Shown here: one piece after another, positions 53,289 to 57,254 of the stretch | Layout of the letters: the number at the start of each line of letters is the position of its first letter | Numbering within the stretch: the stretch's first letter is position 1 | Origin: Verrucomicrobiales bacterium | GTDB lineage: Bacteria; Verrucomicrobiota; Verrucomicrobiia; Verrucomicrobiales; DEV007 | Direction of reading: 5' to 3' | Assembly: GCA_046581505.1 (NCBI GenBank) | Contig: JAYGGE010000099.1 | Coordinates: 11,663 to 75,662 of the forward strand | Length of the DNA stretch: 64,000 nucleotides | The notes under the pieces: model-generated | The model's input: the letters and a program-made list of their open reading frames with translations, nothing else | What the model was told of the DNA's origin: nothing | The model's database searches: none | Position numbers and translations under genes: made by a program

Positions 53289-55343
53289 TTAAGGATCCCT
53301 GATGGGCATGCGCTGCTCCAGGAGATTGAGATTTTCAAGGAACCTGGCCTCAAGCTCAGCATTATTCCCTGAACGTGCGAGCAGGACGGCGCTCTTGATT
53401 GCATCTATAGCTTCCTCGAAGTTGCCGGTTTCGGCATTGGCGGCGGCCAGTGTGCCTAGGAAATGAGGAATTTTCTGGTTGGTGGCATTACAAATGCGCG
53501 TGGCAAGCGTGAGTGCTTCCTTGCCATTGCGCAATGCGGCCTCCGCATGTGTTGAGAGCAGCCATGCGAGGTTGTTTGCCGGTAATACCCAGGTGGGCTT
53601 CAGCATAATGGAAGCTCTGTAGTGCAGGATTGCTTCAGCGCTCTGCCCGGCATCATTGAGAAGGTTTGCGAGTTCAAAGTTTGCTGCCGCGGAACTGCGC
53701 ATTTCCAGTGTTTTCTTGTACATCATTATCGCCTCGGGCTGTTTGCCGAGGTCGCGGAGGAGCCGGGATGCGTCCAGGTGGCGATCCGGGGTAGGATTAT
53801 TTTTAATCAAAATCTCGGTTTCAGCGAGTGCCTCGGCTTTCCGGTTGAGCTTGATTAGATTTCCAATCAACTCGTGGCGGGCGTCATGGTTTCCCGGCGA
53901 GAGAGCCAGGGACTGACGATAATGGGCTATGGCTTTTTCGGGGTTGTTGTCATCAGAGGCGATCGCGCCGAGAAAGATGTGACACTGGGTAAGCTCCGGG
54001 ATGCGCGATTGCTCGGCTTTCGGATCAGGATCGGGGAGTTGCAGTAACGGGACGATTCTCTCGAGATAATCCGCGGCAACCCCCCTCATGCCGTATTCAA
54101 CGAGCCTTTTCGCGACACCTCTTGGCGCCCCCCCCGTCGGCGGAGTGAGCCATTTGCCCCTGAAAGGGGTTGCCCCGGCGAGGATATCCTCTGATCCCGC
54201 CCCCAGCAGTTCCAGGTCGGCAGTAATTCGACTGACGGAGACCGGTCCCTTATAGATAACAGCGAGGTTTCCTTCCGCGTCGATCAGCAAGCTGCTGGGG
54301 AGGGGCAGGTCGGACTGTTTTCCGATGAAGCTTTTCTGCAGGACGTTGAGTGTCTCAAGGGCAAGCCCTTGTATGCGTCCCACTGGGAACGGATACTTGA
54401 TTGCATCTGCTGCGGCCAGAACACGGGCATGATCCTTGCTGCCGTCATCATCAGGCTCATCAGCGCACAGTGAGAGCACCGGGATTGCCGCGGCAGCGAA
54501 TTTTTCTTCATCGCGACCCCATTCGATCATTTCAGCTTTGCAGTTTGGGCACCATGTTGTCCAGAGGTTAAGCAACAACGGTTGTCCCCGGTGGGCATCA
54601 AGGTTAGCCGGTGTGCCCTGCGAGTTAAGGTAAGTGATCTCCGGCATTGGTGCAGGATTGAGCACCACCACCCGTGCTGTTTGCGTAACTTCGTTTTGTG
54701 GCGCCCTGGTATCAGTGAGAGCAGTTTGCGACGTGGGCGGGATGAAGGGGGAAGGCTCAGAGCTTCCCTGCTTGATCAGGTAGAAATTGTTGGCCAGCAG
54801 ACCTTTAAAGCTCTCGGGTTTTTCTCCCGGCCAGTTCACCCGTAAATCTTCAATATTCTCATTTTCCCCTATTCCGAAATGAAGCCACTTACTGGACTGG
54901 GACAGGAAACCACTGCCACCGTAGAGGGTTTTGATTATTGGCGGCTGCTCCTTGTCGAGATGAATTTCCACCCTGGCGCCAATTGCATCACGGTTTGATC
55001 TGGTGCCCTTGAGACGTATTGCCAGGAAGTTGTTTTCTGATTCCAGGCGGTTGTGAAGAAAATGAATTCTCGGCCCGGTGCGGTTGCTGGTCCAGAAATC
55101 GAGTTTTCCGTCCCAGTCCCAGTCACAGTGCGCCAGGCCACGGCCGTCGTCGATAAGGTCAAGACCGGTGATCGAGGAGATATTGGCATATTTTTGAGTT
55201 CCCAGGTTAAGGAAGGCGCAGTTACGTTCTTTACCGGAGAAAGAGTGTCCTGCACGGATCAATTTATTGAGGGCTGCCCACCCGGCGTCGTATTGCAGGA
55301 TTTCCTCAGTGGATGAATCCTTTGTCGGTGACAGCGACACCAC
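53289..55343 (-). CDS. ASPIC/UnbV domain - thioredoxin-like (TlpA-type CxxC) - TPR repeat protein; possibly the C-terminal part of a gene continuous with 55362..57254
   Basis: One further FG-GAP-like repeat (DDGRGLAHCDWDWDGKLDF), an UnbV_ASPIC-like segment (AIGARVEIHL...LYGGSGFLSQSS...HFGIG), a redoxin motif LLNLWTTWCPNCKAE, then multiple TPR-like repeats. The only nearby start is GTG 55343, with no Shine-Dalgarno sequence. It is in the same frame as the upstream ORF. Confidence 0.7.
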   Translation of the reverse strand: MVSLSPTKDSSTEEILQYDAGWAALNKLIRAGHSFSGKERNCAFLNLGTQKYANISSITGLDLIDDGRGLAHCDWDWDGKLDFWTSNRTGPRIHFLHNRLESENNFLAIRLKGTRSNRDAIGARVEIHLDKEQPPIIKTLYGGSGFLSQSSKWLHFGIGENENIEDLRVNWPGEKPESFKGLLANNFYLIKQGSSEPSPFIPPTSQTALTDTRAPQNEVTQTARVVVLNPAPMPEITYLNSQGTPANLDAHRGQPLLLNLWTTWCPNCKAEMIEWGRDEEKFAAAAIPVLSLCADEPDDDGSKDHARVLAAADAIKYPFPVGRIQGLALETLNVLQKSFIGKQSDLPLPSSLLIDAEGNLAVIYKGPVSVSRITADLELLGAGSEDILAGATPFRGKWLTPPTGGAPRGVAKRLVEYGMRGVAADYLERIVPLLQLPDPDPKAEQSRIPELTQCHIFLGAIASDDNNPEKAIAHYRQSLALSPGNHDARHELIGNLIKLNRKAEALAETEILIKNNPTPDRHLDASRLLRDLGKQPEAIMMYKKTLEMRSSAAANFELANLLNDAGQSAEAILHYRASIMLKPTWVLPANNLAWLLSTHAEAALRNGKEALTLATRICNATNQKIPHFLGTLAAANAETGNFEEAIDAIKSAVLLARSGNNAELEARFLENLNLLEQRMPIRDP

Positions 55344-55350
55344 GTGTCGC
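55334..55350. repeat. Perfect 7-bp inverted repeat GCGACAC-CAC-GTGTCGC straddling the GTG start, 11 nt 3' of the in-frame TGA
   Basis: Read directly from the sequence. On the coding (minus) strand it reads GCGACAC-GUG-GUGUCGC, with the candidate GUG start codon as the 3-nt loop. Confidence 0.8.
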
Positions 55351-55361
55351 CAGAAGAAACT

Positions 55362-57254
55362 TCACAAGTCCTCGGTGTCCTGTGCGGTAAAGAAACCGTT
55401 GGCAACATACAGATCCTGCCACCCATCATTGTTGATATCTGCAAAACCCGAACCCCATGCCCAGCGTCCCATGGTGACGCCCGCATCACGACTGACATCC
55501 TTGAACGTGCCATCCCCGGTGTTTTCAAAAAGTGTGTTGCCACGGGCGTGGCGTTGCAGGGATTGGCGTGAAATGCCGTCAGTGCCCGGCTTAAACTGTC
55601 GTTGGAAGGCGATACGGTTGCCGGCGGCGGAAAACATATTGCTCACATAAAGATCGATCAATCCGTCGCGGTTGTAGTCGCCCCAGCTTACTGACATGCC
55701 GGCGGAGATATCCTCTACCCCCGCCTGGGCGGCGACATCGGTGAATTTCCGAATATCACCGGCAATGAGATCGTTGCGGTAGAGGTTGTTGCGCCCAAAG
55801 TCATTGGCAACGTACAGGTCCTGGTCCCCGTCATTGTCGTAATCCTCCCAGGTGGCGGCGAAACTGAAACGCCTGTTGTTTGTATTCATCCCGACTGCTT
55901 CAGTGATATCCGCAAAAATCCACTGGCTCTTGTTTTCAAGCATGAAATTGCGGGCTCCGTTGTTGGCATCGTGATAAGGAACAGGATTTGCGAAGATGTC
56001 ACCCGGGTCAGTTTCCCCGCGCGGGGAGTATCCGCAGACAAAAATGTCCAGGTCGCCGTCATTATCGAAATCCGCAGTGGCAATTGATTGCGGCCAGGAA
56101 TGAATTTCCACAGTCGATATCAGCTTAAATTTCCCCAGGCCATTATTCTCAAACAATCCCAGCGAATATTCCAAGCCGATCACCATGTCCTGATCGCCGT
56201 CGTTGTCGAAATCGGCAAACAGGGCACTGCGACTTCCATCCAGCCAGTCCAGTCCGGCTTCATGCGTGGCATCGCGCAGTGTTCCGTCCTGGTTGCGTAT
56301 ATACAGGAGGTTGGGTAAACCTGCCGGTTGGCAGATGAAAAGGTCGTCAAGGCTGTCACCGTTGGCGTCCCCGATGGACATGCCGTGATTTCCCTGATGG
56401 ATATCGAAGGCGACGTCAAGGTTTCCGTACCAGTAGTCGGCCCCATGAAGCATTTGCTCGCGAAAGCTTTTTTCGTTACCCATGAGCGAATGGGTCGCGT
56501 TGATAAAGGCCGGCAACCCGCTTTGGTAAATAACTTCTTCAAAATCACTGACTGTAATTGAGCTGAGCAGGGGACTTGTGTTTTTTCCTTCACGAACCCA
56601 CGAGCATTTCCAGGTGGAGGTTTGCTGAAGTTGTTGCTCATCTTTTGAGCAAATGGTTTCCAAGAGTGCCAGCGTGGTTGCCTTTGCGGCAGATACCTCG
56701 ACGCGGATGATTTTGAATGTAGTTTTTATTTGTGCATCAGTCTTGGCCCCGATGTCTTTTGCATATTGAATGAGGCTCTGCTGGAAGCCAGCCCGGCCCT
56801 GGTGGGTCGCGGTTGCTTGATTCTGTGCAGCCCCACGGGAGATGGAAAGGGCACCGTCCTTAAAGACTTCCATTGTATCCGGCCGTAGATCAGGGCCGTG
56901 ATAGCTGGAACTGACACATGAGGCAAGGCCGCCTTCAACGGCATCGAATGATCCGCGGGCTGCAAGTGCATCGGCAATTTTATGGAGTTGTTTCCCGGCG
57001 GCTTTGGTAAAGGCTTCCGAGCTCCATTTTTCATCTGCATCAGGATTGATCTTTGCAAAGAGCGCTGCAAGAGGTGCGTCTGCGCTCCGATCAGGAAGCC
57101 CCGGCAGGATGGACAGTGTCTGGGCCGGGGTTGTTGAGATCTTGTTAACTGCAGGGGTCCCTTTGCCCTTGTCGTTTTTTTCACTGCACCCGGTGCTCAT
57201 CCACAGAAAGAGAACAGTTGTGGCTAAGGCAGTCTTTAGTGGATCGATTGTCAT
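55362..57254 (-). CDS. FG-GAP/VCBS repeat lipoprotein (CRTAC1-like N-terminal part)
   Basis: Lipoprotein-like signal (LFLWMSTGC). Repeated FG-GAP calcium-binding motifs are present (ADFDNDGDQDMV, ADFDNDGDLDIFV, WEDYDNDGDQDLYVAN, GDYNRDGLIDLYVSN, ADINNDGWQDLYVAN). It ends at TGA 55362-55364. Confidence 0.75.
   Translation of the reverse strand: MTIDPLKTALATTVLFLWMSTGCSEKNDKGKGTPAVNKISTTPAQTLSILPGLPDRSADAPLAALFAKINPDADEKWSSEAFTKAAGKQLHKIADALAARGSFDAVEGGLASCVSSSYHGPDLRPDTMEVFKDGALSISRGAAQNQATATHQGRAGFQQSLIQYAKDIGAKTDAQIKTTFKIIRVEVSAAKATTLALLETICSKDEQQLQQTSTWKCSWVREGKNTSPLLSSITVSDFEEVIYQSGLPAFINATHSLMGNEKSFREQMLHGADYWYGNLDVAFDIHQGNHGMSIGDANGDSLDDLFICQPAGLPNLLYIRNQDGTLRDATHEAGLDWLDGSRSALFADFDNDGDQDMVIGLEYSLGLFENNGLGKFKLISTVEIHSWPQSIATADFDNDGDLDIFVCGYSPRGETDPGDIFANPVPYHDANNGARNFMLENKSQWIFADITEAVGMNTNNRRFSFAATWEDYDNDGDQDLYVANDFGRNNLYRNDLIAGDIRKFTDVAAQAGVEDISAGMSVSWGDYNRDGLIDLYVSNMFSAAGNRIAFQRQFKPGTDGISRQSLQRHARGNTLFENTGDGTFKDVSRDAGVTMGRWAWGSGFADINNDGWQDLYVANGFFTAQDTEDL

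Follow-up and report, generated by a model that had tools for sequence, protein, structure and literature searches.

What becomes of a ribosome that meets the single in-frame TGA of an FG-GAP/ASPIC gene in a Verrucomicrobiales bacterium is the question raised by this locus, which lies on the minus strand of a 64,000-nucleotide (nt) stretch of contig JAYGGE010000099.1 (the window in what follows). Read from the ATG at 57254 to the TAA at 53291-53289, minus-strand 57254..53289 is a single frame of 1321 codons, and the TGA at 55364-55362, in the place of residue 631, is its sole internal stop. Comparison with related sequences makes it very probable that the two open reading frames (ORFs) flanking this codon, 55362..57254 and 53289..55343, are one gene, and that UGA-631 is decoded as selenocysteine (Sec), yielding a 1321-residue protein; the hairpin 11 nt behind the UGA would act as a bacterial Sec insertion sequence (SECIS; bSECIS for the bacterial type) and recruit SelB·GTP·Sec-tRNA(Sec). 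The elements concerned are the following.

53289..57254, minus strand: predicted selenoprotein gene of 1321 codons, with one internal TGA and Pfam domains on both sides of it
55362..55364, minus strand: UGA codon 631, very probably decoded as selenocysteine (from column conservation and the Sec machinery of the genome)
55333..55361, minus strand: putative SECIS element (from sequence, fold and comparison of homologues)
55361-55351, minus strand: spacer of 11 nt (sequence)
55350-55344, minus strand: 5' arm, GCGACAC (sequence)
55343-55341, minus strand: loop, GTG (sequence)
55340-55334, minus strand: 3' arm, GTGTCGC (sequence)

A preliminary description of the locus had placed the two ORFs in one frame, with only the TGA and the residues S-F-F-W-R-H between the first ORF and the GTG that opens the second, and the read-through translation agrees. 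It had also followed the FG-GAP series across the break; the repeat DWDWDGKLDF and the UnbV/ASPIC domain (residues 757-825) are indeed found 3' of the TGA, in the translation and by Pfam. The downstream ORF lacks an ATG for more than 200 codons, as described there (the first Met past the TGA is residue 870, 239 codons on), and no Shine-Dalgarno sequence stands before the GTG, the preceding 11 nt (AGTTTCTTCTG) not being purine-rich. The perfect 7-bp stem GCGACAC-GUG-GUGUCGC, 11 nt past the TGA and with the GTG as its loop, has the coordinates given above. For this arrangement four readings had been offered without a choice between them; Sec recoding is the one that stands, while conservation, stop-codon usage and the frame speak against a mutation or sequencing error, against recoding as Trp, and against reinitiation or two separate genes.

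Conservation of the TGA codon and of the hairpin behind it

When 40 related genomes were searched in all six frames for matches to the read-through protein, nearly all of the roughly 100 matches listed contained exactly one TGA. Orthologues carrying it cover the full length of the gene at 91, 71, 60, 57, 55 and 50% identity, the nearest (91%) coming from a Verrucomicrobiales metagenome-assembled genome (MAG). Six further paralogues in the same genome, seven copies in all, have TGA at the identical alignment column, within the motif D-L-U-S-F-F/Y-W-R-Q-V-V, and two distant paralogues of this genome have Cys there.

C201:2331, C67:7424, C41:9966, C121:17520, C189:56851 and C190:4218 (contig and position, strand not stated): putative Sec paralogues of the same genome, placed by alignment column

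With the genome's own contigs and 71 fetched loci of relatives taken together, TGA occupies column 631 in 73 members of the family, 66 of them from other genomes, and it is found at the same site in more than 200 model hits as well. Another 25 TGA forms occur among named public MAGs from at least three phyla, labelled Verrucomicrobiales, Akkermansiaceae, Verrucomicrobiota, Pirellulaceae, Planctomycetales, Mariniblastus and Planctomycetota and including 'Candidatus Tharpella aukensis' and one further bacterium. The codon is retained down to about 30% protein identity, and the Asp two residues N-terminal of it is invariant (73/73 copies). The preliminary description had counted against a single gene the case in which homologues are consistently encoded as two genes, each with its own start; in every fetched copy the halves are in frame across the TGA, and no start signal is conserved. 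It had also proposed that Cys in the TGA column of intact homologues would favour Sec and any other residue a mutation, a rule that would mislead here: the column holds N, S, C, A, G, H, D, E or Y in intact homologues (Cys in P0013, P0015, P0026 and the distant paralogues), yet the TGA is conserved. In a search of the in-frame TGAs of the family for a second Sec in the thioredoxin motif none was found, the few further TGAs being true gene ends.

The hairpin of this gene falls within the bSECIS consensus on every count. That consensus (PMC13188914) has an apical loop of 3-9 nt with G in the first two loop positions followed by G or U, a stem of 4-16 bp, 16-37 nt from the UGA to the loop, and a minimum free energy (MFE) of -7.5 kcal/mol or lower; the loop here is GUG (3 nt), the stem 7-8 bp, the GTG begins 18 nt past the UGA, and the 22-nt hairpin segment (nt 13-34) has an MFE of -11.7 kcal/mol. 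An extra G-U pair (55351/55333) accounts for the 8-bp form, which reaches -14.2 kcal/mol over 47 nt (RNAfold). A search of Rfam at the TGA site gave no meaningful match, the present SECIS not being recognised by it. What speaks against the SECIS reading is that the lone hairpin is unremarkable, with a z-score of -1.0 against dinucleotide shuffles, 27 of 200 of which fold equally well. The window has about one perfect 7-bp hairpin in every 1.5 kb, and the chance that one starts inside a 7-nt span behind a given TGA is about 0.5%. The hairpin is thus significant because of the comparison with its relatives, not as a single copy.

This comparison comprises 72 distinct sequences, each aligned over the TGA and the 39 nt behind it. 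Invariant throughout are the TGA itself, the TGG of the Trp codon and a G-U dinucleotide in the apical loop. The full 6-bp stem is present in 66 of the 72, in 53 with a 5-nt loop, usually GGUCG, and in 13 with the 4-nt loop GGUC; when all 72 are scored in one register only 79% of the cells are paired, since these 13 sequences use the 4-nt register, and both registers were hence scored. There are 24 stem haplotypes, among them the compensatory double changes GCGCCA/UGGCGC, GCGGCG/CGCCGC, GAGGCG/CGCCUC, GAGCAC/GUGCUC and GCGUAC/GUACGC. Within a single fixed register, too, both the number of cells changed on the two sides of the stem and the covariation score are higher than in any of 500 column shuffles. 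The GTG in the loop, pointed out in the preliminary description as the only candidate restart codon, is incidental, as the loops of most paralogues read GGUCG or GGUC and the hairpin is best taken as a SECIS.

Synonymous codon choice is biased within the same element, as seen when codon use at each position is set against the background of the same genes.

Leu before the UGA: TTG in 87%, background 14% (UUG in 61 of 70 copies)
Ser after the UGA: AGY in 100%, background 38%
Gln: CAG in 100%, background 66%
Val: GTC in 81%, background 38%
Val: GTG in 97%, background 41%
Ser: TCG in 94%, background 21%

Codons +11 and +12 (Ser and Pro, just past the hairpin) use all synonyms, so that the bias is found inside the element only. 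The base following the UGA is A in 70 of the 73 TGA forms. The context of the UGA codon is constrained beyond the hairpin as well, in the preceding UUG and the following AGY.

Homologues without the UGA fall into two kinds. In the older non-Sec forms L084-L086, which have Cys (from 'Polarisedimenticolia'), Ser and Asn at the site, the peptide FFWRQVV is kept and the stems are broken. In two others the hairpin survives: a Phycisphaerales MAG (L083, GCA_020852275.1) has TGC (Cys) in the column of U631 with a still perfect hairpin behind it, which looks like a recent replacement of Sec by Cys, and in the orthologue L018 (G008:C14, near locus position 3393, minus strand; 61% identical across a segment of 180 residues that includes the site) a net deletion of 3 nt has removed the Sec codon (DL-KLFWRQ against DL-U-SFFWRQ) and left the hairpin GCGGCA-GGUCG-UGUCGC intact, which looks like a recent loss of Sec. 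Seven members (L062, L070, L073, L075, L107, L069 and L071) have a UxC motif, as U-S-C, U-P-C or U-T-C, at the place where this gene has U-S-F.

The closest parallel to the element is the SECIS of Escherichia coli fdhF, whose sequence was verified in 5413 E. coli genomes before the comparison. Both have an in-frame UGA, a spacer of 11 nt and a short G+C-rich hairpin within the coding sequence, and in both the apical loop holds G-U; the GGUC loop of fdhF itself recurs in paralogues of the present gene. Dependence on selA, selB, selC and selD, as in fdhF, is predicted here. The elements differ in that the bulged U in the upper stem of fdhF is absent here, and in the loop, for which most copies have the 5-nt GGUCG and this gene has GUG (or CGUGG); the hosts differ also, fdhF coding for a cytoplasmic molybdoenzyme and the present gene for an apparently exported propeller protein.

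Selenium machinery and other readings of the TGA

The genome, a 4.25-Mb assembly in 212 contigs that is about 94% complete, contains what the decoding of UGA as Sec would require. The preliminary description had called for a search for selA, selB, selC and selD, and all four were found: a tRNA-Sec (62.7 bits, above the Rfam cut-off, and called SeC(tca) by ARAGORN), SelA (match at 1.5e-122), the winged-helix domain of SelB (match at 1e-16) and selD, which is split over two contigs (C171:2-685 and C179:9989-10468, both minus strand) and has an in-frame TGA in its N-terminal part, presumably the well-known Sec form of selenophosphate synthetase.

The RNA element and this machinery go together across genomes. 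A 48-nt covariance model of the TGA and the hairpin (R1) finds exactly the seven paralogues in the genome itself and nothing else. Among 61 genomes of the same taxonomic family it has matches in 27, with 1-22 copies each, counts that are lower bounds because of strict filters. SelA is present in all 27; a copy is missing from each of the 24 genomes that lack SelA and from 10 that have it; related genomes are not independent observations, but the pattern is without exception. In 150 genomes of other Verrucomicrobiota families R1 gave no match, which under strict filters and with 40 candidates scored per genome is not proof of absence; TGA forms do exist in two other families of the order (G033, G037 and G039).

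A different kind of proximity is seen on contig C21, where the tRNA-Sec gene (C21:10986-11078, plus strand) lies about 300 nt from a Cys-type FG-GAP/ASPIC paralogue (C21:11377-13755, minus strand; motif DYCSTFWCHDLY). The Cys-type paralogue is also found on one contig with selA in two congeners (G004:C500 and G002:C61), and a distance of 19 kb separates the pair in G009. Such proximity may reflect a real link or no more than chance synteny among members of the genus.

Apart from selenocysteine, the UGA might be read by a near-cognate or suppressor tRNA (Trp, Cys, Arg or Gly) with the hairpin as a stimulator, which would likewise yield a full-length protein, though one free of selenium. Halves that are always in frame, and intact homologues that tolerate many residues at the column, would be expected in this case too. 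The confinement of the element to genomes with SelA (27/27, against 0/24 of those without) would not, nor would a loop and spacing that match the SelB-binding SECIS of fdhF; moreover, a sense codon should soon replace a TGA that is merely read through, yet the TGA is kept to about 30% identity. Such read-through is very unlikely to be the explanation.

An arrangement of two genes, in which an FG-GAP lipoprotein ends at the TGA and an ASPIC-thioredoxin-TPR protein is made by termination-reinitiation at the GTG of the loop, can point to the position of this GTG, 18 nt past the stop, and to annotation pipelines that split such loci in two (Kim et al. 2016, PMC4807772). It is very unlikely indeed, as the GTG has no Shine-Dalgarno sequence before it and is not conserved as a start, the loop being GGUCG or GGUC in most paralogues, as the frame across the TGA is the same in all 73 copies, as the propeller fold crosses the break in a confident single-chain model, and as the second half would be left without a signal peptide despite its periplasmic-type TlpA domain.

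A recent nonsense mutation (a pseudogene) or a sequencing or assembly error at 55362-55364, suggested by the bare stop codon and by the draft state of the 212-contig genome, carries next to no weight beside a TGA shared by orthologues down to 50% identity and by six paralogues of the same genome, two intact halves and an RNA hairpin under selection. Equally negligible is the reading of UGA as Trp or Gly throughout the genome (genetic codes 4 or 25), a condition of some reduced Verrucomicrobiota: a change of UGA to Trp is reported for the phylum (PMC13462651), but in this genome TGA is an ordinary stop that ends 503 of the 1331 open frames of at least 400 codons, each family member has one TGA, always in the same column, and tRNA-Sec, SelA, SelB and SelD are present.

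The window contains one further frame that was considered as a selenoprotein, a reading that found no support, namely a HesB-like frame at 63046-63390 (plus strand) with a TGA at 63151 where the first Cys would be expected. Its read-through sequence, ...AGGR-U-SDFVNDG..., is not of the UxGP type known from catalogued HesB-like selenoproteins, a second TGA follows 30 codons on, and no convincing hairpin stands behind the TGA at 63151.

Protein architecture and a possible role for Sec631

If UGA-631 is decoded as Sec, the resulting protein combines a propeller, a thioredoxin-type domain and a repeat array behind a signal peptide.

57186..57254, minus strand: signal peptide with lipobox-like end MTIDPLKTALATTVLFLWMSTG-C23 (translation, judged by eye)
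54987..56390, minus strand: CRTAC1-like FG-GAP beta-propeller, about residues 289-756, with a helical insert that starts at Sec631 (Pfam, AlphaFold, Foldseek)
54780..54986, minus strand: ASPIC/UnbV domain, residues 757-825 (Pfam PF07593, E 3.5e-16)
54225..54650, minus strand: TlpA/ResA-like thioredoxin domain, residues 869-1010 (Pfam, PDB sequence matches, Foldseek)
54540-54551, minus strand: active-site motif W-C902-P-N-C905, residues 901-905 (translation)
53385..54059, minus strand: C-terminal TPR array, residues 1066-1290 (Pfam TPR_2, TPR_15, TPR_16 and related)

The propeller is recognised by Pfam as FG-GAP_3 (PF13517, 9.8e-37) and FG-GAP (PF01839, 1.1e-16), with repeats on both sides of the TGA, and the thioredoxin domain as AhpC-TSA (PF00578, 1.2e-12) and Redoxin (PF08534, 4.1e-10); PDB sequence matches of the latter are TlpA, DsbE, ResA and the N-terminal domain of PilB (2jzr, 2fy6 and 2h30). 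An AlphaFold model of residues 260-1020, built with 54 sequences, has a predicted local distance difference test score (pLDDT) of 92.2 and a predicted template modelling score (pTM) of 0.91. Foldseek ranks murine CRTAC1 (crystal structure 9etn_A; E 1.7e-26, template modelling score (TM) 0.71) first among its structural matches, and the region of about residues 860-1010 matches ResA and TlpA with TM of about 0.8. Sec631, which is residue 372 of the model, opens a helix (372-378) directly after a strand (367-370), where the helical insert of the propeller begins. Thioredoxins, peroxiredoxins and glutathione peroxidases usually have their nucleophile in such a place, at the N-terminal end of a helix preceded by a strand. 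From its N-terminal sequence the protein is probably an exported, membrane-tethered lipoprotein that acts outside the cytoplasm. The neighbouring genes, hemB and a phosphoribosyltransferase gene, offer no functional link.

Extracytoplasmic thioredoxin-fold redox proteins that use Sec are already on record in the TlpA/redoxin-type selenoproteins, such as the UGC-containing TlpA, the WAxxUGC ResA-like family NF041054 and the Prx-like UxxC proteins, and the thioredoxin domain of the present protein weakly matches NF041054. In those proteins, however, Sec sits in the thioredoxin motif, whereas here this motif is a plain CxxC and Sec would lie 271 residues upstream, in the insert of the propeller. 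Another analogy may be Neisseria PilB (a TlpA-like thioredoxin domain with MsrA and MsrB), which is likewise exported and has a TlpA/ResA-like CxxC domain fused to another module. The TlpA-like domain of PilB keeps the Msr catalytic modules reduced. The analogy ends at the fused module, since the Msr modules and the propeller are unrelated and PilB has no Sec. The propeller together with ASPIC/UnbV is shared with vertebrate CRTAC1 (9etn), which differs in having neither Sec nor a thioredoxin domain nor TPRs. CRTAC1 is a secreted matrix protein and is not known to have enzymatic activity.

By analogy with PilB, Sec631 could be the reactive residue of an exported redox protein and depend on the fused TlpA-like domain for its recycling, a proposal that is plausible but tentative. 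Sec631 would serve as the reactive nucleophile of an extracytoplasmic redox reaction and would be reduced again by the fused CxxC domain, and the CxxC domain would itself be supplied by a membrane reductase of the DsbD/CcdA type. Among members with a readable C-terminal part, CxxC is retained in 71 of 75 Sec forms and in 25 of 94 non-Sec forms; across most of the large Asn-type clade the motif has degenerated to SxxC or further. In a tree of 188 members the Sec/non-Sec state changes at least 12 times, 9 of these changes being forced by well-supported branches, and with the distant Cys-type paralogues taken as the root, which is an assumption, Sec forms are basal with the non-Sec forms nested among them, a pattern that agrees with Sec having been lost repeatedly.

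Three observations count against a catalytic Sec631 that depends on the fused domain. The association of Sec with CxxC yields only 7 independent contrasts; these point the way expected, about 4 in the same direction and 0.3 in the opposite one, but are not significant, with a median p of 0.22 in a sign test. Two Sec paralogues of the same genome, C121:17520 and C189:56851, lack CxxC (one has SVDC and the other no recognisable redoxin), and a CxxC partner in cis is therefore not strictly needed. Lastly, non-Sec homologues have N, S, A, G, H, D, E or Y at the site as often as Cys, which is unusual for a catalytic Sec or Cys and leaves room for a non-catalytic or accessory role.

A wider proposal is that Sec631 is the catalytic centre of unrecognised extracytoplasmic redox enzymes built on the CRTAC1/ASPIC propeller, that Sec is ancestral in the clade and has often been lost together with decay of CxxC, and that the selenoproteomes of aerobic marine and soil Verrucomicrobiota and Planctomycetota are dominated by this exported family. 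As a whole this proposal is speculative, and it is advanced as possible rather than probable.

A barely documented selenoprotein family

Genes of this kind have been met with before. Kim et al. (2016, PLoS One, PMC4807772, S9 Table) list four ASPIC/UnbV FG-GAP selenoprotein candidates from planctomycetes, each annotated as two adjacent genes split at the UGA, with a SECIS predicted by bSECISearch for three of the four and with Gly at the site in the closest non-Sec homologue. As far as can be judged from their description the domain content is the same, and they are the same kind of gene; they differ in being candidates in a supplementary table without a family-wide analysis, whereas the gene described here comes from a Verrucomicrobiales MAG. 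No FG-GAP/ASPIC family is among the 119 prokaryotic selenoprotein families inventoried in 2026 (PMC13188914, full text and Table 1), and the text of that inventory contains none of the terms FG-GAP, ASPIC, UnbV, CRTAC, VCBS, propeller, PF13517, PF07593 or PF01839. The main text of the BSepDB paper, as distinct from its family list, does not name the family, NCBIfam has no model for an FG-GAP/ASPIC selenoprotein family, and the main-text literature that joins selenoprotein or selenocysteine to FG-GAP, UnbV or CRTAC1 yielded nothing relevant. The gene, one of seven paralogues in its genome, belongs to a selenoprotein family that is widespread, absent from the catalogues and hardly documented; the way in which its UGA is recoded is itself already known.

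What sets the family apart is the place of Sec, outside a thioredoxin-type motif and in the beta-propeller insert of an exported protein, the nature of its hosts, which are free-living and mostly aerobic heterotrophs, and the frequency with which non-Sec relatives have a residue other than Cys at the site; jointly these three unusual features recommend the family as a good test case for the retention of Sec. Gene callers split these genes in two, and databases therefore hold hundreds of truncated 'FG-GAP' and 'ASPIC/TPR' proteins; for the same reason selenoprotein counts for Verrucomicrobiota and Planctomycetota are too low, on a scale indicated by the 7 copies in this genome and the up to 22 matches in its relatives. 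The context UUG-UGA-AGY, the 11-nt spacer and the GGUC(G) hairpin make up a compact signature, and R1 can be used to find and re-annotate the family.

For the CRTAC1/ASPIC proteins of bacteria and animals, a conserved Sec in company with a fused disulfide reductase provides a concrete and testable hint of redox chemistry. Should Sec631 prove to be catalytic, it would be the first functional lead for the CRTAC1 fold; and selenoproteomes dominated by this family, with at least 22 copies in one genome, would overturn the notion that large selenoproteomes are a feature of anaerobes.

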